From assembly GCF_026571515.1 (NCBI RefSeq), contig NW_026863230.1, positions 62,001 to 126,000 of the forward strand: a DNA stretch of 64,000 bases, written 5' to 3'. The notes under the pieces were generated by a model. That model worked only from the letters and a program-made list of their open reading frames with translations, was not told the origin of the DNA and searched no databases. Positions 405 to 46,000 of the stretch are shown in pieces (positions within the stretch are counted from its first letter, which is position 1; each line of letters opens with the position of its first letter). Origin of the DNA: Ruditapes philippinarum. Lineage: Eukaryota. The position numbers and the translations under genes are program-made.

Positions 405-3400
405 AATGTGAAGCATTGAAGTTTGGTATAGAATGCAAAGAAAGTTGTTCCTCAAATTGCAAGCATGGCCATTGCAATAACGTCAACGGCAATTGTACTT
501 TTGGATGCAAGCCAGGTTATCAAGGAAATAAGTGTGAAAAAGGTAAGTCATTCTATTATTCAATTTTTTATGCAGGAAGGTTGATTGAATTAACAATGCC
601 AATGATTCAACATTCTGATTGTTATAATTATACAGTATGGTTATTTCATTTCTATGACCTTTCTCCAATTTTGTAATTTGGTAACATGATTTCTTTACTT
701 ACAAAAACACAATAATGACTGAAAGAGTAGCATATAAAATGATCTTCACATAATGTTTTGATGGTGTCTTCCTCGACAACATTTGTAGGTTAATCAATAA
801 TGTACAATTATATGTAACCTAAATTTAAATACACATCATGAACACAGAAATAACTGAAAATATTTGTTGAAATCGCACAGTATCTTTTTAACCTGATTAA
901 GTTTTATAAATAATAAAATGTGAAGCATTGAAGTTTGGTATAGAATGCAAAGAAAATTGTTCCTCCAATTGCAAGCATGGCCATTGCAATAACGTCAACG
1001 GCATTTGTATTTTTGGATGCAAGACAGGTTATCAAGGATATAGGTGTGAAAATAGTAAGTCTTTTGTGTTATCTTGCGGGTATGATCTTAGCATAAATAT
1101 GTCTAAACGATTTCCCATCACTCGTATTGAACATGTACGATTCGATTTTAATATTTTATATGAAAATAAATCCTGTATATATTGTTCTTAAAAGTAAGCA
1201 CAGGTCTGTTTTTAATTAACTTAATGATTCGATATTTAACTTTGTACGATACAGTTTTATATGCAGTTGCTGGGTCATGTGGGGGTTGCGTTCATTAAAC
1301 GCCGCCTTTCCTTGTTGATCTGGTTTATCATATTCTATATAAGATAATTTTTTCTATGCCTGATTCAATTTAAAATGCAAAAAAGATCTAATTTGTAAGA
1401 TCAATTTCTTACAATTCGTAACATGAAAAATTCGTGTTCAATGTGCTAACAACGTTTTCCATATCATGCCACTTCATTGAATAAATGAAAATAAAATGAG
1501 AAAAAAGACACGGGTTCATTTTCAAGACAACTTTTTTATCACTTTTATTTTATGTTAAATTGTGCTTATTTATTTTATTTGATTTTATTTACAAATCTGG
1601 TAGAATGTTTTATTATCTTGACTTTCTGTATTAGTTTGGATGATCAAAATTTATTCATTTTATTTGATTTTATTTATAAATCTAGTAGAATGTTTTATTA
1701 TCTTGACTTTCTGTATTAGTTTGAATGATCAAAATTTGAAAGTGCGTTACCTTCTTCTTTGTAGTTTCCAACTAAAATCTGACAATCTAATAAAATTGCA
1801 AACGAATCATCCTTTTAACATATTTGTCTTCGACTGTATAAAAACGACGATCTGCCATGGGATTACATGTATATCTTATGTTAGAAATTAGTTTGTTATC
1901 ATGTCTGCTGAGGCAGTCAAAGATTGATACTTGTCATATGAAATATGAAACATATTTTAAAATCGATAGAATGGATACAATGGCCCTAAAGTCATTTTGT
2001 TTTCTATGCCTGAGTGTTAATATTGATATATTACTTTTTGTTGGCAATAAAAAAAATGTAACACATCTGTGATCCTTTATCAGAATGTCGTTCTGGATCG
2101 TTTGGGACGGAATGTAGTGATAAATGTTTTACCACTTGCAAAAATGGTGTCTGCAATCATACGAAAGGCTATTGTATTAGTGGAAGCGAGGCTGGTAATC
2201 AAGGATATATGTGTGAAAGAAGTAAATTTTCAAAAATTGCATGATTACGTAGATAGTATGACAGTATACAATAAGTATAAAGGAACTTTACACTTTTTTG
2301 TACATCTACGACTCCTTAAGATAGTTTGCCTAAAACTTTTAAATTTCTTCTGACCATGGTATTGATTTTTCGTAAGATATTTTATATTTAAAATTTGTTA
2401 TTACATACCTTAAATGATTACTCCAACTATCGACGTACATTTTCAATGCTTCTGCTGTCAGCTGTCTCAGCCAGTCAGGTAAATGTGAACATGAGTAAAC
2501 AATATCAATATTGCTTTACATTCATAATTAAAACTATCTTGCTGCATTTGCCAGTCATGAAATTGCTAACAACAAAATGAAAGTGCCTGTGCTAGGGCCA
2601 ACACAATTTACAGGAAGGTTGATCACCATGTTAAGTTGTGCAGCTGGGGTTTCGCGTGTGGATTAATTCACTTTTGTCAGAGTTATTGCCCTTGACTTTG
2701 TTTTGATATTCAAAAATTAAAAATAGCACTTTGGAATACGGCATTCGAGGTCAATACATATAAATCAAAATTCAAAACGGTGTTCATTAGCCGTTATTAT
2801 TTCCTATATAAATTATAATAATCATAATAATAAGAAATAAATATACTGTAACATTTAATATCGTACCGGCAAATTTCGATTCACAAAAAGAAATCTTGTT
2901 AGAAATAAAATGTGCATTATATATTAAATCTTTCCTAGAACTTTCTGTTTCCTAAAATGAATGTTTACTAAATTTTATGTTGATAATGTGGTGCAGTGAA
3001 TTATGTGTATTTGGTCAGTATTTATTTTTATACATAATTCAATTTTTGCACAGAAAAATGTAACGGTGCTGCTAATTTATGTAATCATTGTGTTAGGATT
3101 GATTTTGTAATAAAATCAAAGAAGGATTTTTGATACTCAATAGAAATAATTTCCGCCATACTTTTCCTTATTATTTCTCTAGGATGAAATAAATAAATGG
3201 ATACTGGAATTCTTTTTCATTCTTTATAATTATATCTGATTTCTTCTCAATATATAAGTCGGACTATTCTGTGATGGTTTGAAAAATATTTTGTTAATAC
3301 ACATGCATTTTTTTTTCAAAATAATATTAACAATGTACGGTCGGCACCTTTGGCGTACATTTTGGATTTAATTTGAAAGTTTGTGAAATTATGCCCATAA

Positions 3401-14100: not shown

Positions 14101-14498
14101 TCTTGTACCGTGGGTGTAATTGTAAGCTGAAAGCTTAAATAAAGTTATTATCATAACGTATTTTCGGCCAATATACACTTTGACTTTTTTCTACAAATTA
14201 AAGTCATATGTTTGTGTCAATTGTTTTATTTAGGTAAAATTGATAATATCTGTCATATGTTTGTGCCAATTGTTTTATTCATGTAAAAAGAATAAAATAT
14301 TATGGAATATGGTAGATTATGCAAGAACAAATGTTTAACATTTGTTTGCGGTTTAGATCGGAATATCCGTCCCTAGGGAACCCGCCAATGGGCGGATCCC
14401 CTCGGATCGTATATTCCGATCCGAACCGCAACATATGACAGATATTATCAATTTGTTTATTTAAGCTTTCAGCTTACAAATACACCCACGGTACAAGA
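14101..14498. repeat. Nested palindrome: inverted duplication flanking a Crypton-type hairpin (14344-14432)
   Basis: 14101-14143 is the inverse of 14456-14498, and 14241-14262 is the inverse of 14429-14450. The inner hairpin is gcggtttagatcggaatat...atattccgatccgaaccgc. Confidence 0.7.
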
Positions 14499-34500: not shown

Positions 34501-37086
34501 GTTTGCTAGCTTGTCACTTCAATGATTATCTGCATATAAAGATTAATTTCAGTTTTCTACGTTTTCCGTTTGTGTTTTTTTTATTTATAATGAGATTTGT
34601 TATTAAGCCCACAAGGCATTGTCAAAACCGGCATTTATATAAATGTTACAGTGTTAAACAAAGGGATAGTATGGTAACATTCAAAATTTTTTGTTATTGT
34701 TGTACACCAGCAGACTGGTCAGTTCTGCAAAATGTCAGAATGATTAAAGGCACATAAAATGAATCCATATCAGTACTGAAATATAAAAACAAATATTAAG
34801 TGGGGTTTTTTTTTTCTTTGTTTTTTGTTTGTTTTTTTTTTTGTTTTTTTTTTTTGTTAAAATGTCTACGTTCAGCGACAGAAATATTAATAAATTTGCT
34901 GAAATTTTCTGTCGTAGGGTATTTGACGTTGAAATCCGCGCTGGCGTCTTCGAATATTTTTATGCGAGAAAGCTATCCAGCTAGCTTACAGAACGTCGAT
35001 CGTTCTATTCAGGTGCGGTATTTGTGCCTGAAATAAAGCTGGCTGGAAAGTCGAAATATAGTGTTCGTGATTTTGAATTCTGTAGCTTTTATTACGGATT
35101 GTTGTTTGTTATCAAAAGAAAACCTCTTACATATTGTCTAATAGTTGACCATAAGCAATATGTAGATGTTTCTGTGATGACATCAATAAATTACGTAAAT
35201 CATGATAACCTTACACGTTTTGTAAATTTAATTAAAGGTAAAACTGTCCACATGTCTAAAAGTCGATTAATGCACATTAACTTAATCCATCTATTTTATC
35301 CAATTTTGAAACATATTCTTCAGTGATATTTCTTAGCCCCTTCCAACATTTCTCTTACCTACACATTTATAGATATGTCACAGTCCCATAATTTCACGAC
35401 AGAGTCTTTCATGCCTTCAAAATGTTGATCAAGTATTTAATGATCATAATGTACAAAAACAGTTATCAGTTAAATCACTTCGAATTTAAACTCTAGATTG
35501 ACATTATCATATGTAAGACATTGTTGATATTTTCAGTCACGTGTTCTTTTCTGAAATAAGATTTTTTCAGTCATATGTTCTTTGTTAAAATTAAATTATG
35601 AGTAATGTGTTCTTTGCTTAAGTGTTATTTTTCGTCATGTGTTCTTTTCGTCCATCATAGTTTCAGTTATGTAATTTTTGCTGTTATCATATTTTCAATT
35701 GGCTATAATTGTTTTCAATTATGTCTTTATTGTATTATAATATTTCAGTGATGTGATCCAGTTGAACCAACTGAAAGCTGAAGATAATTCTTTAAGTATT
35801 ATATTGAATATTTTACACAGTTAAAGGTATAATCATTCTAGATTTTAGGCTGAATGAAATTTGCTACAGTTTTCAAGTCCACATAAAGGCATAATGTAAA
35901 CTCATTTTTAGAATTATTTAAACTTTCCAGTATCTTAAAATGTGGTAGCTGAAACATTTGAAGTGAAGGAATAAGATATGATTAATCTTGTTTTTCCTGA
36001 GTTATCTACGTATCTGTAAATCAGGTTTTCTGTAACATTAATAATTATTACGTTCATTCTGTATTTCATGGTTCCTTATTTATTAATGGAGTGTGTCACA
36101 GTTGTCACTCATAGAAATATCTCTCAGTCTCACCCTTTGTTCAAACTTCTAGCATCTCATTTCCTCTGCATAATAGGCATCAATACGTAAGTATATTAAT
36201 GAATTTATATCTAACATATATGATGTGTGGCTTAAAGTGGTTATTGTTAAACAGGTTAGGATCACTCTTCACCAGGCTGTTGGTATAAGACTTTGGATCC
36301 TTTTATGTGAGTAAGCTGTCTCAGGTAGTTTACGTAAACGCTGGTTGATCTACTGGTTAATGCAACTTGAATAATGCATGATAGGATGATTTTACTAATA
36401 TAACTACGAAACTGTCATAATTATGATTGTTAATTGGTATAACTTTAAAAAAGAATCACAACCAACAAAGAAAATAACTATTGTGAAGCACCTGTTTCTT
36501 CTGTGTTTTCTGTGAGTGTGGGTATATACTTTGTTATCATGCCATTACTATGACAACTGCCTGATAAAGCCTGTCTGAGAACATCAACCTTTCTCAGTCA
36601 GTGACTTGAGAACACTTTTCCATGCTTAAACCTATGGAAAAGTCAGAGGATATCAGATTTTTCAAGCACCTCCCACTTTTTGCCGGACTACTTTCACAAT
36701 GTAAACAGCTTAAAGCATTGCAAAAAATAAAAAGATAAAACAGCCTAAATAAAACATATTTATTAAAAAAAATAATGTTACAAAAATAAATAATGATTTT
36801 TAAATGATTTAATTTTAATTAAAGGTATATTTACACAAATTCTTATTAAGATGCTTACATCTTTAAAAAACATCTTCTGCTCTTAGACATCTAAAACAAC
36901 AACAACAACAATAATATTAATAATATTAAATAATTAAAAAAAAAAGATGAATTCTTAGTAACAAAATCAGAGTAAGGACAGGAAAAAACATTAATTATAT
37001 TTACATCATTCTCAAGTTTCACAAAGATAATTATAAATAATACAAATAAGCACTTTTTAATCTTAATTTGACAATCCTTCAACTTT

Positions 37087-39387
37087 ATGGCAACGTTCAA
37101 TTTGCACTGGGATGATTTGTTGGAAGTTCAAATGATGAATATTGAAGAAATTTATGACAAGAACGAATTTAAAGTCAACACTGGTATTGATCCATCAATC
37201 TTTGATGAGGAATTTGATGAAGAAAAACAATACAATGTTACAAAGTTATTGACTGATTCTCAGCTGTCCGAGTATTCGAAGACTCCTGTTTCAACTGAAT
37301 GTCTTCAAATTCCTGAAACTGCTGCTCAATGTTCTCAAGCAGCATCTGATCAATATCCTCAAGTTGATGAAAATCACAGTGCTGTGCCTGTCCTTACTGA
37401 TGTTGCCTCTGAAAATATTAACAAAGGCTTTATAATGGTTGATATGGACTCTGTAAAGGCATTTAACGAGTCGGAAAAAAATCAGCATACAAAACGTAAA
37501 ACTAACCAACATATAAACAGGCTAAAAACTTTTCTCAAACTAAAAAACGAAACACGAGATTTCCATTCCATCCCAATGACGGAGCTGGATGAGCTTCTTG
37601 CCATGTTCCTTCTCTCCATTAAGAAAGAAGATGGAACAGACTACGAGCCGAGTAGTTTATGAGGGTACATATCTACATTTGACAGAGTTCTCCAGGAAAA
37701 TGGGTACCAATTTACCATAGCCAAAAGTTCAAGACAAGGATTTCCCCTAACAAATCAGACTAAATCGGTAATTACAATTTATTACATCTATTCAATAATC
37801 TTTTGGAAATTAAATAAATCCAGCAAAAAAGTGAATTTCAAGATACATGTATTTCATCATTATAAACTAATTCCCCCCCTGGACTTGTTTCACTTATAAT
37901 TAAAAAAAAATTGCCTGTAATGAATTTTTGCTTTTTAATTTTAAATGATCTTAATTTTCTACAAATAATCATGATATAAATCAGCTATTTTTCAAACAAC
38001 AAAATGATTAGCATGTAAATTTCAGGCAAAAACAAAAAATCTGAAAAAATCAGGTAAAGGCAACAAAGAAAATGCTGCCCAACCAATAACAGATGAAGAG
38101 ATTGACAGGCTTTATGATACCGGCCAACTAGGTCTTTCTTCACCACAGTCAATCATCAACACTTTGTGGTTAACATTTACCATACATTTCGGCATGAGAA
38201 GTGTAGAAGAACACTATCACTTATGGTAAATTTAAATGTCATCTCTATTAATTAAAAAACAGTTAATGAGTAAGATTATTAAACCTAAAAAATTAAAATG
38301 CATAAAAAACTTTTTTATTTCAAAATCACTTATCTCAAAATCTTCTAGTAACGTTTTTCTGGAACGTAAACTTTAAGGATGTTCAGAATGCCATTCAAAA
38401 TGAAATTTCATGTGGCCGAGCTTCACCGTTTCACAACCTGAAATTGGAATAAATTTATAATTTTAGTTGCATACTTAAAACTAAAAAAAAAAAAGGCATA
38501 AATTAACATGTATTTATATTAAAAATTGCACATATAAAAATATTGTTTTCAGTTGGGGCGACGTACAAGTAAAGATCGATGCGGAGGGCACTGAGTTTCT
38601 GGAACTTACAGAGCGCCAGACTAAAACACGCACTGGAGACAGCGGTGGTTCTAGGAAGGTTCCTCCACGTATGTGGTCTAGTGGAGATGAGCGGGATCCG
38701 GTATCTGCCTACAGATACTATGCGGCAAAGCGTCCACATAGATTCAGTCGGGATTCGGACCCATTTTATTTGGCACCAAGAACAACCCCACCTACAGAAT
38801 TTGACCAATGGTTTTTAAAACAGCGGGTTGGAATAAAAAAAATTGGCACACTTATGAAAACAATGACTGTAAAATCAGGCATAACACGGCACCTTACCAA
38901 CCATTCTGCCAGAAAACACACTATACAAAAGCTCATGGATTCGGACCAGGCACCTACTGATATTATGCAGATCACTGGGCATGAATGTGTACAAAGCATA
39001 ATCAATTACAGCAATATGTCTTTGAAAAAGCAAAAAACTTGCTCTAATATCTTAAGCAGATCTGCCACTTCATTGAGATCAATTAATACAAATAAATCTG
39101 CAACATGTACAAATGCTTTTTACCTTGACAATAGCACTTCTGTCCCAATGCAGTCTCCGCTGCCTGTTTTGCCATCTACACAAATCGAACCTCCTGTCTC
39201 TGCTCCAAACACTCAGTCTCAGGTAGTCAATGTTCCAACTGTTAATTACCCCACCCATTTCACTCAGGCTGGAAATGCTCCAGGTCATGTGCAGTCAATG
39301 TTTTTTGGTGCTACTGTCCATATACAGAATTTTAATATGTACAGCATGCCTCCAAGGAACGATCAAGACAGTAGCAGTCGTAATTGA
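37087..39387 (+). CDS. Crypton tyrosine recombinase (DUF3504/ZMYM-QRICH1-KCTD1-like), 3 exons, one in-frame TGA
   Basis: Exons 37087-37767, 38026-38225 and 38553-39387 (GT-AG, phases consistent). Motifs KKEDGTDYEPSSL*GYIST, GKGNKENAAQPIT, HFGMRS, WGDV, ERQTKTRTG, TNHSARK, ITGH, INYS give a complete R-K-H-R-H-Y catalytic set. Confidence 0.9.
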
Positions 39388-39913
39388 ACAGTTTTAAAAT
39401 ATTTCCGCTGAACAGCTGAGGTGAACAGGTGAACATGTGACCGAGACTCCTTCGTCCAAATCCGTTATGTTAACTGTTAAACTGTTAATTTCTGGCTAAC
39501 AGTTTGTAAAACATTGTTCTTTTTGTGTTAATCTCCTTAATAGCTTTAAAAATCACACTTGTTATCCTGTTAAAGCGCAATTAAATTCTCCAGTTTATGT
39601 CTGTTTCAGCCGGCGGCCATTTGCTAAATTTGTTGAAATGGTAATATGTTCCTACGCCAGATCAGCACTGATGATGTTTATTGTTGGTATTGTTTAATTG
39701 ACTTTGCTAAATATTTATGATAATACACAGTAAATAAATTGTTAAAGCAAATTGTACCAAAAATTGTGTTGTGTTATAAAATTATTGGTAAAAACCCTCG
39801 GACTACTTTTTTGGCGTATAACCCTCTTGTACAAAGTGGTTACCGTATTTTCAGAAATTAGCGCACCGAATTAAAAAAAAAAGATACAAAATCATAATAG
39901 TGGCATGATAAAA

Positions 39914-40063
39914 AGAATAACAGGTTACTGTCTTTTGAGAAAGGGATTTCTCAGACTCGGCTAGATATGGTCCGGAAGGGGCTCGGCAAGCCTCGCCCCT
40001 TCCAGGACCATATCTAACCTCGTCTGAGAAACCCTTTCTCAAAAGACAGTAACCTGTTATTCT
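39914..40063. repeat. 150-bp terminal hairpin of Crypton A
   Basis: agaataacaggttactgtcttttgagaaaggg...ggggctcggcaagcctcgcccc...ccctttctcaaaagacagtaacctgttattct; arms of about 69 bp, near-perfect. Confidence 0.95.
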
Positions 40064-42248
40064 CTATTTCTAACAGTCATAACCAATGTTATGGCAGAGA
40101 CAAGAATATGGCCAATGAAAGAAAATAAGCTAGCACACAATAAAAACTTATCATTGATAGGTAAGCTGATAAATTACTAGTCCAGGGGAGCCTATTTCTA
40201 CAAAAAGAAAATCAATATTTTATTTATAAATAATTATTTGGCTCAATAAATTAAATATGATAAACATGCTGTCAGATTATAAATTGACAAGATGCCAATT
40301 CTGTTATTTATGATATGAAATTCATGTTATTTGATGTGTACAGGTTGATGACTGAAAGTCTCTGTCTATAACCATTTAACTGCTTAAAAGTGTAATAATC
40401 TTGCAATAAATAAATTAAGGGTATAATGTTTATAAGTCAGTATTAATTTTCTCTGTCTGGTGCGACACAGTCACGTGACCATTTTAATGAATGTTCTTTT
40501 TACAAACATAAAGGTTGAAACCTGAGTGCGAGTATGAAAGGATAGTATTCAAATACATCAGTGCCCATTGAATAAACGTAATGTAGAAACAATTTTGAAA
40601 CAATTAACATACATGTACAATGAACAATTTGTTTTATACAGACGAGGTTTAGAGTTATGGCTGGGTAGATAAAACTATGAATATTGGGATCAAAGGAATG
40701 TTTGAGCTCATCAGGCGAGGGTATGTTAATAGCTTGCTAGAGATATTTTGTGGTAATTTTTAAAGACATTCTTTTTTGTAATTAAGTCAAAGTATGGTAA
40801 TTTATAGATTATCATTTCCTTTAATTGACTCATTTACTCATTTTTAATGTCAAATTAAGTTGAATTGTTATAATTATACTTCAAAGGATCGGAGTCCATA
40901 ATGATGACTGACCAATTATTGATATTGAAACATGTTACAATACAAATACAAAACAACAATAACTACAATTTAAAAAAACTGCCACTCTCTTTTTTAATAA
41001 TTCAACATTAGTAATACGTTCCGAGGGAAATGTATAAAAATTTTCGTTGTCCATTCAGATTATTGAATATTTATATAATATTCAGGTTTAAAATTGAACG
41101 CAAAAATGGCATATCGTCAAGTTATTTTGACTTTTTACTTGTTCACTTACCATAATTACCTTTATGAGCATTTTATCACTTTATTGCCTATGATTGTTAT
41201 TAAAATCATATTATGAGTTTAAAAAGTAATGTTTCAGTTTACACATATTTATTTTAACTTAATAATGAAATAAGTTTATGTAAATTATGTTGATAACGTT
41301 CAAGTCCTAACTTTCTGAAACAAGCCAGCCAACATCATTCAGTTTTGCCGGGTTACCATTTCCGTGGTGATGAACTCTTATTATACAATCCCATTAACAA
41401 TTAGTAGACTTATACTTTGGTTAGGGCAATTACTTTTATAAAATATAAAATGTCATAAAATGTTTCATGTGATATGAGATTTTATTAATTGTTTCAAAAA
41501 ATGCCAGAGTGCGACCATTGTGCATGCATGTTCTTTGGTAAAGTTTATATATATTTTATGTCAATTTGACAACAAATGAGATATTCTTTTTATCAGGGCA
41601 AGTAGGTCTTACACATGAAGTTTTCAACAAATTTAAAGATCCTGTATGTTGTATTTAAGGTTGTTACCACACTTAAGTGAAATTGTATATGTGTATAAAA
41701 TTATGCTTCTAAAACAAATTTCAAACATCGAAGAATATGTAAAATATGTACTGCAAATATGTGTCCACATTATATAATCATTGAAATATGTGTATTTATT
41801 ACTTATCGAAGAATTGACTTACACTTTATGGAAAATAAATTTCCAATAACCTCCCATTATTAATATGAAATACAAATTCGTAAATATCTTTACAAATATT
41901 GCTTTTTGGAACTTACAATATTGATAAATCTTCATAATAAGCATTATATTTATGATGTAAAACCATTAAAGAATTAGTTACAAGATTTTTAACAGTAAGG
42001 GTTCTATAGATGCCCAACCACAGTCGTTTTTCTGTGTCATTATGGTAGTTATGGATATTAACATATTGACTCTATACAGAGATACAAAATTCATTGCTAG
42101 CAATGCTGATTATTTTTCAAGGTCACAGGACATAATATAGCCCCTAAAATGCAGAGCATCATAGTGCATTTTGTATGATTATGTATAGATTATGTATGCA
42201 CAATATGTTTTCATTTTTTAATGTGAATGGTGTATGGTTGCATGATAA

Positions 42249-43082
42249 GCAAGAGCTGTCGGTAGGACAGCAATGCTCGACTATTCTTAGTGCTTGATAG
42301 TAAAAAAAGCCTTGATTAAAAGGTCAAATTTTCTAAGTAAAGAAAAAGGCAAAATTTTTCTTTAAATCCATATTACAGTTATAGGCCTTGGAGAGAGTCT
42401 TATTATGCTCTCAAAGAAAAGTATAAAATTTCAACATGTTTCAAAGCCTTATGTCAATGAATTTTGAGGTATTACAAAAACTTTAACGTAAATTCTAAGT
42501 CGAAAAAGGGGCATAATTTTGTCAAAATGCTTGATAGAGTTACCTCCTCCTGTCCACATGTTGGAGTCATGATGGTGAATAAGTGTGCAATGTTTCAAAG
42601 CCATATGTCAATGGACTTTGAAAATATTTGAGGTATTACAAAAACTTTAATGTAAATTCTAAGTTGTTAAAAGGGGCATAATTCTGTCAAAATGCTTTAT
42701 TGATTTACCTCCTCCTGTCTACAGGTTGAGGTCATGAAGGTGAACAAGTGTGCAAAATTTCAAAGCCATATGTCAATGGACTTTGAAAATATTTGAGGTA
42801 TTACAAAAACTTTAACGTAAATTCTAAGTCGGAAAAGGGGCATAATTCTGTCAAAATGCTTGATAGAGTTACCTCCTCCTGTCTACAGGTTGGGGTAATG
42901 ATGATGAACAAGTGTGCAAAGTTTCAAAGCCATGTGTCAATGGACTTTGAAAATATTAAAACTATTACAAAAACTTTAACATAAGTGGTTACGCCGACGC
43001 AGACGCCGACGCCGACACCGACGCCGACGCTCGGGTGACTACAATAGCTTTACTTATTCTTATCGAATAGTCGAGCTAAAAA
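42249..43082 (-). mobile_element. Complete non-autonomous Helentron-type element (HINE) with about 165-bp internal tandem repeats
   Basis: Subterminal IR gctcgactattc / gaatagtcgagc, (GACGCC)n microsatellite at about 42992-43030, three units starting about 42465, 42629 and 42794, a terminal hairpin gagctgtc-ggtag-gacagc, and an A-run at the end. Confidence 0.85.
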
Positions 43083-43090
43083 GTAAATAT

Positions 43091-46000
43091 ATAGAGGATA
43101 TTCAAGTTTTTTCTTTAAATACGTAATTTATTTTCATTGAGTGGTATGAAAATAAATAGTTCACGAGTGGCGGTAGCGACGAGTGTAATATGAAACTTTT
43201 CATACCACGAGATGAAAATGAATTACGTATCTAAAGAAAAAACTTTAAATTTCTGTTTATTATATACTTTTTCTCATTTTCAACCTTACGATTGACAAGA
43301 CTTCCCCTTTAATTTTGTGTATTGCCTGAACCGCACAACGACTTTAGCTCTTTTTTTATTTATAACGCTCTAAAAAAATTCTTCCGCTAGATTGGGATAA
43401 TTCACCTTTGAGAACGATTTATTAATTTTAGGTAACTTTTAGATTAACAGCAGATTTTTATTCTATTAATATTAATTTGAAAATTTAAAAATGGTTGTTT
43501 TCAAAAGCTTTAAATTCATCCGCTTCTGGATCATTGTTGACGCCATTTTGCGAAAGAAGGCATGTTGATTAGCAGACACGCATTAATTTGGACAAATTTA
43601 TGTCATTACGGAGGGAGGAATAGGGGAAACACATCTGAAATGTGAGAAAACGTTTATTACAGCATATGAACATCAAATTATAGACTGTCAATATGTGTAT
43701 TAAAATTATAACTTATTTATGTGTTTCAACTGTGCCAAGGGCGACAATCAGTGACATCAGATGATCAACAGATCAAAACATGTGTAACAGTAAAATGTTT
43801 CAAAACAGGAATTAACTTTAATCAACATAATTGGATCACTGATGCTAATCTTCCAAAGACAGTTTATTCTGAGTCAGAGTCTATTGGAAGTATCCTTCGG
43901 CGTTTCCTTACTGGTGGAGAGTTCATGATGGCCTAAACATTTGAATTTGATGTGTTAGACATGTTACTTGTGTGGAAATGGACATTGATATTTCCACTGA
44001 TCTGGTTTCCACTGAAAAAAAACACCTAAAAAGTCATACGGATTCCTGGGAGCCGGTTGTTGAACGTGGTCACTGATATGAGTCTCTGTGTGCTGACGAC
44101 TGGCGTAAACGTGGTGTGGAGCTGAGATATCTCTTGATTTAGTGCAGGTGTTTGGAGGTAATTTACTCAATGTCCTTTAAATATCTTTCTGTTGACTTTC
44201 ATTCAACGTGCTGTAATTGTTGACAATGTTTACATTTTTGTGGCCACTAATCTGAATGATGTGGTTGGGTGCAACGCCAGCATAATTTAATGTCTGTACC
44301 ATTCCTTTCCTTACACTGTAAATAAATGGTATTTTTTAATTTTTTTATACATTAAACTTTAAAGCAAAGTCAATCAAATTTTTAAGTCAATCACAATATT
44401 TTTAAATCTAATTATTAAACAAAAGAAGCTAGCAGCATTTAATGTAATTGAAAATTCATTAATTAAAAAAATAAAGAAATATTATAGATATTTGACGACA
44501 TATAGAACACTTTATTTTATGTAATCATTTTTTCATGTATAACATTTTTTTAAATTGCCGACAGAATTACTTATGAGGAATTTTGTTGTCGACTTGTTTT
44601 CAAATGAAATTCTAATAGTAAATCTACCGTAATAATGTTCGCACAAACTTTCAAATTAATAAAACAGTGAGGACGGTTAAATTGGTTTTTTTTTATTTTA
44701 TTGAAATATATTTTAAAGAAGATTTCTCTGATTTATGTTAAAGAAAGTTGTAAAAGTAATTTTTGCATGATTTTTCAAATATATAAAACAAGATTTATGG
44801 TTAAATAGTAATTTACATGCCACAGTTTGTTTTAATTAAGATTTGAAATAAAAATGTGTTTAATTTAATTCAAAAAATAATTTTATATAATTTTTCTAAT
44901 TTGTATACTGTTTATAGGTTTAACATTGTGAAAATATGAATTATTAAAACTTTTTTTCCTATTAATATGTTTAAATTCAATTTTTATTTATTACTTGCCT
45001 GTATGGTGTTAAATTTGGCTTATCTATGTTTGTTGCATGCTTCATATCCTTCATTATGCTGTATATTTTGTTAATCCCCATGGTACATTTCTTATACCAA
45101 GGTTTTTCATTTTCAGGTACGTTAGAAGCTACAGTTAGGAAGAATGGAGAGTTTGGCTCCAACATTGCTTCTTGACGGCTATTAGCAAATTGCTTATATA
45201 AAGCCACTGGACAACGTGCCGGATTTTCAATAACTTCATAAGCTCTTGGCTTTATTTTTCTTTGGTCACGAGGATAAGCCCCAGTCCTAGTTTTGGTTTG
45301 GCGCTCCTGACAATACACCAGATATTCGGAGCCATCATCATCAGACATCAACTTTACATCTCCCCAACAAAGAGAATGAACCTCTGTGCCAGTCCGCATA
45401 CCAATAAAATTGGTGCAAATAAACCACATAGAGTTTTGAAGTGCTCTAGGATTGTTTCCACCAAGCTGGTCAGCTGCATAGAATTTCTCTGCAACATTTT
45501 ACGTCGGATGTTATGGCAGCAGCAGCATTTGGGTTGTTGCCTTTGCCTTGTGATTTTAAGTGTTTTGTTTTTGCTTTCAACACCTGCTTACATTTCTGGA
45601 AAACCTGATCTTTGGATAGTGAAAAGCCATATTGGTTCACATTTAGAAACCTTTGAATGCTTTGGAACTTTGATATTAGAGAGTTTGGCTCATATTCCTG
45701 GCCATCTTTTTTCCTTACTGCATATATAAAACTACTCACATAGGCAGATAACTCTTCAGGAGGGATTTGAAGTATTGGCCTACTTTCAGCCACAGAGACC
45801 AAAATTTCTTGGAATAATTTAATGTCTTGGTCAGTTTTAAATTTAGTATTCTTATTAATGCCATCTTCAAGAAATTTGAAGTAACAAATCGTGGATTACC
45901 AATATTTATTATGTTGCTGACATCTTCATCTTGTTCAGAAGGAAGAACTACCGGTTCATTCTCATTGACATTATTTGGAACTGATTCATCATCCTGTTGC

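Follow-up and report, generated by a model that had tools for sequence, protein, structure and literature searches.

A CryptonA transposon of Ruditapes philippinarum with a terminal hairpin and an inner copy of its joined ends, a candidate for movement as a folded DNA strand

The window analyzed here is a stretch of 64,000 nt from contig NW_026863230.1 of Ruditapes philippinarum (assembly size, 1.41 Gb), and all coordinates are positions in it. Between 36534 and 40067 lies a CryptonA transposon, i.e., an element with a DUF3504-type tyrosine recombinase, which is a damaged copy of a recently mobile family. The recombinase is its only protein, with no second long frame inside, and the three exons give profile matches to DUF3504, Phage_integrase, and QRICH1 only. 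Full-length copies are 3.5 kb and have one gene. The apparent placement in CryptonA rests on the DUF3504 domain and on bivalve and cnidarian homologues, the nearest named proteins being bivalve. Sequencing runs labelled as mollusc also contain the sequence. Besides the gene, the element has a left end (L) that pairs with an inner repeat (I), a terminal hairpin, and an inner site, K, in which the two ends are represented as if joined (Table 1).

The family comprises ~95 copies in the genome, mostly ~500-bp non-autonomous ones. Exact left ends number 94, of which 63 belong to short copies (~500 bp), 15 to long copies, and 1 to a shorter one, the remaining 15 having no matching K partner. With one mismatch allowed, 95 K sites are found in the whole assembly. 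The long copies are 89 to 98% identical to the window copy, while the median pairwise identity among short copies is 98% (n = 39), and the joint that defines the latter (36615-39645) is present in both reads and contigs. The boundaries proposed for the window copy in a prior model-made interpretation of the same DNA (the sequence-only reading), which had called the ends fully definable, are exactly those of the other copies. Since dispersed copies share its boundaries, the element is a transposon, and this multicopy family rules out a domesticated DUF3504 gene present once at a fixed locus.

The right end folds into a strong hairpin (fold z = -16.8). According to the sequence-only reading, a 20-bp inverted repeat at the very left had its partner just inside this hairpin. 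The repeat is real, 18 of 20 positions pairing when none of 300 shuffles reaches 17 of 20, but its partner lies just before the first hairpin arm. The partial copy of the hairpin arm that had been reported near the left end was found there, at 36573-36596. What had been missed is that the inner partner and the first hairpin arm together constitute an inverted copy of the joined ends, which is the site K.

The same layout accompanies divergent recombinases. We examined 21 loci for a downstream hairpin, 20 retrieved through distant recombinases and the element's own, and found one of 90 to 260 nt in 17. Eight family representatives were chosen from these 17, with recombinases 38 to 61% identical to the window protein; left out were the four loci without a hairpin, two with an atypical hairpin (L113 and L127), and seven same-family duplicates. 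In all eight, K is 2 nt short of the right end, though arm and end sequences differ. The mismatches also have a strand preference, with 12 tandem G·A pairs on the minus strand and 0 on the plus strand, and of 65 mismatched pairs, 36 read as G·A and 13 as G·T on the minus strand. Tandem G·A pairs are presumably stable in DNA. When a natural 498-nt copy is folded as a circle, the junction pairs with K, leaving a 2-nt bulge on the minus strand, with an energy of -109.8 kcal/mol for the minus strand versus -103.4 kcal/mol for the plus strand.

We think it likely that the element moves as a folded minus-strand DNA circle via one strand exchange, a reaction of which we infer all the steps. The minus strand, once unpaired by replication or supercoiling, would allow K to pair with both ends and align them. 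The recombinase would then swap the two end strands, which would free a single-stranded circle with its junction still paired with K. This stem of junction and K would recombine with a double-stranded target like the junction core, and replication or repair would resolve the product. With K 2 nt short, exchange of its strand would be prevented, so that the hairpin would stay unflipped and no permuted copies would form. Departure of a single strand could also raise the copy number. Movement of a folded strand would account for the lack of target duplication, of flipping, and of permuted copies. The conserved K, the hairpin, the mismatch layout, the family and its boundaries, and an intact and spliced sister gene are direct observations. 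Literature is cited here for the parts of each paper that were available. There are precedents for tyrosine recombination of a folded strand in integron attC sites (PMC2727003) and phage CTXphi (PMC3089051), and active Cryptons of Chlamydomonas combine clean excision with copy gain (PMC9977147).

In the conventional explanation, Cre-like recombination in two steps excises and integrates a double-stranded circle at the joined ends, K and the hairpin being accessory binding sites or regulatory sites, or acting by cruciform extrusion. This is the current proposal in the available text of a 2026 review (PMC13565253), which assumes a double-stranded circle and states that the mechanism of Crypton transposition has not been demonstrated experimentally. 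It predicts precise insertion at a short junction-like core (PMC9977147), and it agrees with Cre being the best full-length structural match of a modeled homologue (see below). However, on a duplex circle the junction and K would be inverted near-copies and should flip the hairpin, yet the hairpin center has the same orientation in 70 of 70 exact matches (64 by coordinates and 6 by reading). Moreover, neither the constant 2-nt shortfall nor G·A pairs confined to one strand have an evident meaning in duplex DNA. We consequently consider this explanation rather unlikely. The same count led us to reject flip/flop of the hairpin as a normal route, whether through parvovirus-like ends or 2-micron-like inversion between junction and K.

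No permuted monomers were found: among the 94 left ends, a single one adjoins a K match, and this is a nested locus. The exact junction string has seven hits, of which four are right ends of a sister family followed by that family's apparent left end, two are right ends followed by host DNA, and one is a locus on contig C4941 described next, none being a permuted copy of the window family. In sister-family loci L146, L149, L150, and L152, the right end is directly followed by a left end, with hairpins ~960 bp apart in L149 and L150, which represents either circle multimers or self-targeting.

That K is reactive or targeted is evident at two loci. On C4941 (L071/L072, G000:C4941:80606-81608), a short copy is inserted in inverted orientation exactly in the K site of a near-identical copy. 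The two have 0 differences in the hairpin and, besides the junction base, one substitution in the stretch between L and I, while the next-closest copy differs at five positions; because they are nearly identical, the event was local. The second locus, on C10092 (L183, G000:C10092:10070-12195), is rearranged: two left ends are fused to the hairpin arm, 2 nt out of the usual register, and a joint of this type is present in five reads from two other runs. In favor of a duplex intermediate, both inverted-dimer loci could arise by recombination between junction and K on double-stranded DNA.

Insertion is precise, occurs at sites like WT^WTMT, and generates no target duplication. The pair of bases before the element is AT or TT in 49 of the 51 two-ended copies, from which one spurious pairing across a nested locus had been dropped (junction pairs, n = 48). 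After the element, the second base is T in 45 of 51, the third is never T, and the fourth is T in 41 of 51. This target is directional and resembles the joined ends (..CTAT followed by TTAT..). Among the loci examined, empty paralogues were found for 11 of the 48 sites. Seven are gap-free within 12 nt (two of them in the same repeat), in one the sole gap is 12 nt distant, two are off by a single base, and the last is unusable. In the empty-site comparison that the sequence-only reading had proposed, 8 of 11 paralogous sites are precise, with no base gained or lost. For the window copy itself we found no precise empty allele, the 26 left-flank matches in its own genome all stopping before the junction except the copy itself. 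Run X2, from another sample, contains an allele without 36187-40656 (the element and flanks) and with 29 other letters in between, which is not a clean empty site, while run X3 contains the left junction of the window copy; in most runs the right flank has little or no cover. This suggests presence/absence variation of the region 36187-40656.

The recombinase gene has the three exons and two introns (GT..AG) that the sequence-only reading had given it. The exons make up 571 codons with one internal stop, and both introns, for which a check in RNA reads had been advised, are skipped at the predicted sites in one contig of RNA run X15 (depth 10.9). In this contig, none of the 13 coding differences checked is a stop, and exon 1 has one more difference outside this set. 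Contigs of run X10 are unspliced, and X10 may be DNA. Runs X23 and X24, although labelled RNA-Seq, were excluded from the expression evidence; their loose read ends stop at GATC and their introns are covered, so that they resemble proximity-ligation DNA. Exons 2 and 3 both match DUF3504 (PF12012) above its cut-off, and exon 3 also matches Phage_integrase (PF00589) below the cut-off (E-value 0.0011). The full R-K-HxxR-H-Y catalytic set is kept, as had been claimed, in columns conserved in 94 to 100 of 100 homologues.

The window copy itself is a dead member of its family and of little use. Its premature TGA stands where all 14 siblings covering codon 192 have Arg, the residue that had been surmised. 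It was the only lesion noted before, though the copy departs from its family elsewhere as well. Six further missense changes are private to this copy (L6, K29, R357, M422, L468, and F483; none of the 12 to 14 siblings compared per position), and two of them, R357 and M422, lie in the catalytic domain; I111 is found in 2 of 14 siblings. In addition, the whole family has Glu-Cys right after His437 (11 and 13 of 13 copies), where homologues have Lys/Arg and Asn in 98 and 97 of 100. "One stop codon from functional" was therefore an overstatement. The sibling with an open frame that had been sought exists: sister copy L002 (G000:C14869) is full length and 97.9% identical, its 571 codons (exons at 2054-2734, 3007-3206, and 3539-4373 of L002) being free of stops and its exons free of indels; it also has two family-rare residues, I386 and S498. 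Since its frame is naturally intact, repair of the window frame is unnecessary, and the usefulness of a resurrectable copy is moot.

Variants found in at least three copies are 16 synonymous and 9 non-synonymous (omega ~0.15; 17 copies, some possibly alleles or local duplicates), versus 89 and 215 for singletons (omega ~0.66; Fisher p = 6.5e-4 against the shared variants). Such purifying selection on inherited variants is the pattern expected of a gene selected while moving and decaying once inserted. At the structural level, a model (mean pLDDT 80.1) of the bivalve homologue P0002, which shares 54% identity with the window protein in the catalytic part, shows a tyrosine-recombinase fold. It aligns best over its full length with Cre (Z = 19.0, root-mean-square deviation 3.6, 288 residues aligned), with lower values for integron integrase (Z = 14.7, root-mean-square deviation 5.1, 277 aligned), and its top Foldseek match is QRICH1 (9hjt, E-value 4.7e-10).

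Two further explanations bear on these results. The first is a Helentron/HINE-type element, moved by an HUH rolling-circle enzyme and merely carrying a Crypton gene. The second Helitron type (PMC8969392) resembles our element in the asymmetric inverted repeat, the hairpin at one end, the 5' T, and the lack of target duplication, and head-to-tail copies do occur in a sister family. We judge this highly improbable: the recombinase frame was under purifying selection during spread, a matching end layout accompanies divergent recombinase families genome-wide, only 22 of 48 junction pairs have T following the right end, and the element contains no HUH Rep-helicase gene.

The second is a DIRS-like route, in which K would act as an internal complementary region on RNA or cDNA made by a reverse transcriptase supplied in trans, the circle being integrated by the element's own recombinase. 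DIRS elements share with ours a tyrosine recombinase and an inner region near the 3' end that is complementary to both termini, and K fits the definition of this region, being complementary to the start of the left end and the finish of the right end (PMC6681497 and PMC8969392). An antisense RNA would retain the introns. Tandem G·A pairs and CUUG loops are stable in RNA too. Nevertheless, our element lacks the reverse transcriptase, RNase H, gag, and long inverted terminal repeat pair of DIRS, and both introns are kept in long copies, though the sense RNA is spliced. In addition, the departure of K from the true ends is constant (a 2-nt shortfall and mismatches at 2 of 20 positions), and K is, for this reason, unlikely to be their template. 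This route is improbable in our view.

Table 1. Features of the CryptonA element, in window coordinates
Position	Strand	Feature	Basis
36534..40067	+	Whole CryptonA element, 3534 bp; left end TTATCATG, right end TCTCTAT	Boundaries common to 51 distinct copies that have both ends and lie in unrelated flanks
36534..36553	+	Left end L, pairs with inner repeat I	18/20 complementary; 94 exact genome copies
36534..36615	+	Left 82 bp retained in ~500-bp non-autonomous copies	Matches in other copies; joint 36615-39645
36573..36596	+	Partial copy of the hairpin-arm motif of 40022-40041; candidate protein-binding repeat	Within the part retained by short copies
36684..36694	+	5' copy of the GGACTACTTT motif, probably part of the gene promoter; absent from short copies	Similar motif in 9/20 divergent loci
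37087..37767	+	Exon 1: acidic N-terminus and start of core-binding domain	QRICH1 PF25561 weak match, below cut-off
37660..37662	+	Premature stop, private to the window copy	Arg in 14/14 siblings; all reads and contigs examined differ here
37768..38025	+	Intron 1, 258 nt, GT..AG	Absent from X15 RNA contig
38026..38225	+	Exon 2: DUF3504 start, catalytic R285 at 38197	PF12012, E-value 1.7e-07
38226..38552	+	Intron 2, 327 nt, GT..AG	Absent from X15 contig and one X2 contig
38553..39387	+	Exon 3: K318 (38623), H411 (38902), R414 (38911), H437 (38980), Y446 (39007)	PF12012, E-value 1.4e-07
39645..40067	+	Right 423 bp retained in non-autonomous copies	Matches in other copies
39799..39809	+	GGACTACTTT motif, 3' copy, ~115 nt upstream of the terminal hairpin; may act in cis	
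39892..39911	+	Inner repeat I, reverse complement of the left end	
39898..39925	-	Junction mimic K: on the minus strand the right end is followed by the left end, with 2 nt fewer than in the true junction	
39912..40067	.	Terminal hairpin, 156 nt; minus strand: two tandem G·A pairs, G·T pair, two unpaired T, CTTG loop	

Several points weigh against movement as a folded single strand. The fold of the P0002 model is nearer Cre, a double-strand enzyme, than integron integrase, and the Glu-Cys after His437, unlike 97 to 98% of homologues, may weaken the family's enzyme, so that the intact copy L002 is only putatively active. For the hairpins alone, the computed energies favor the minus strand only slightly, by 0.6 to 4.4 kcal/mol in 6 of 8 representatives, an advantage that is absent in the other 2, and in one sub-lineage an arm change wobbles on the plus strand instead. 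Covariation between L and I is significant in 3 of the 8 representatives and visible but short in 1, while the left end was not found in 4 of 8; the eight moreover share ancestry and were selected from 17 loci. Since K fits the ordinary target consensus, the C4941 pair may reflect local hopping into a good target. Finally, no right-to-left junction of this family, and thus no circle in either form, was found in the eight runs examined, which is a weak negative because such molecules would be rare and hairpins are poorly read.

Among described elements, CryptonA of animals (PMC3212892; Kojima and Jurka 2011) is like ours in having a single DUF3504 recombinase gene, an animal host, more numerous non-autonomous derivatives, and no target duplication. 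In the available text of that paper no terminal repeats were found in animal Cryptons, all CryptonA being entered as "n.d.," and neither "hairpin" nor "palindrom" is mentioned; the window element differs by its sharp ends, 156-nt hairpin, and inner copy of the joined ends. Glomhopper, a CryptonA subfamily (PMC13465315), likewise has DUF3504 with intact catalytic residues, introns, and expression, but it is fungal, and the available account gives no direct evidence of transposition and describes no comparable end structure. The literature searched contains no description of a CryptonA terminal hairpin or junction-complementary site, although Repbase/Dfam entries, Goodwin 2003, or subscription reviews may have one. 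CryptonA elements were already known; what the window locus adds is an intact, spliced, and selected gene together with counted ends, targets, and orientation.

The folding itself recalls bacterial systems. In attC (PMC2727003) and CTXphi attP(+) (PMC3089051), a tyrosine recombinase acts on a folded single strand with unpaired bases, and the window element resembles integron-type folding in that its palindrome is imperfect and its conserved unpaired bases are not the same on both strands. In CTXphi, a hairpin of ~150 bp forms the site, and one strand exchange is resolved by replication (PMC3089051). In contrast to our element, for which the reaction is conjectural and the fold is nearer Cre than the integron integrase IntI, these systems are bacterial and their folded-strand reaction is proven. 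Two other groups integrate at a short core that resembles their own end and increase in copy number, CryptonF-1_cRei of Chlamydomonas (PMC9977147) and the bacterial SE elements (PMC9345347), which circularise one strand. They have recombinases of other groups; for SE-6945 no folded end is reported in the available text, and SEs encode four core genes. With the domesticated genes ZMYM2-4, QRICH1, KCTD1, and KIAA1958, the window element has the DUF3504 domain in common. However, these are conserved host genes, mostly without the catalytic residues, whereas our element is dispersed, multicopy, and has all six.

The direct repeat CGGACTACTTT, reported by the sequence-only reading at 36684 and 39799, is present, but the bare repeat is no more than chance would give (73 of 300 shuffles). 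Of 20 divergent loci, 9 have a similar motif upstream of the gene. Among the 17 hairpin loci, 12 (7 of 8 families) have the 3' motif within one mismatch, 106 to 138 nt ahead of the hairpin; the Poisson p for this recurrence ignores kinship of the loci and is too small. Short copies retain only the 3' motif, exact in 35 of 39. The 5' copy may have a promoter role and the 3' copy a cis role, and CGGACTACTTT is presumably akin to known promoter and E2F motifs.

Other observations concern hairpins and the surrounding window. Loci L006, L007, L005/L013, and L129 have symmetric deletions of the hairpin center, a pattern to be expected from extrusion of the hairpin in vivo or from mis-assembly, while L120 (G000:C1372) and L123 (G000:C14763) have extra hairpin elements stacked after or near the main one. 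A second DUF3504 recombinase gene, frameshifted and interrupted, occupies 43066-45874 on the minus strand (pieces 45874-45503, 45483-45001, and 44320-44072), with its own ~200-nt hairpin (43078-43272), a right end, and a junction mimic in matching style. Five degenerate ~32-bp tandem repeats lie 1 kb left of the CryptonA element (35529-35696), and an imperfect palindrome of 86 nt is found at 14346-14431.

We lean toward a broader view, held with somewhat less confidence than the folded-strand route itself, in which animal CryptonA elements, the ancestors of ZMYM2-4, QRICH1, and KCTD1, correspond, in eukaryotes, to integron cassettes and CTXphi. An enzyme with the Cre fold would splint both ends on an inner mimic of their junction and move one folded DNA strand. 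The family offers exact ends, a minimal element of ~500 bp, a target rule, and a naturally intact gene, which makes the question of single- versus double-stranded movement directly testable. If this view is true, the stop-free and spliced family would supply the enzyme, the substrate, and the target rule for a first test, and CryptonA would be a transposon of eukaryotes whose tyrosine recombinase acts on folded single-stranded DNA, and a scarless insertion system.

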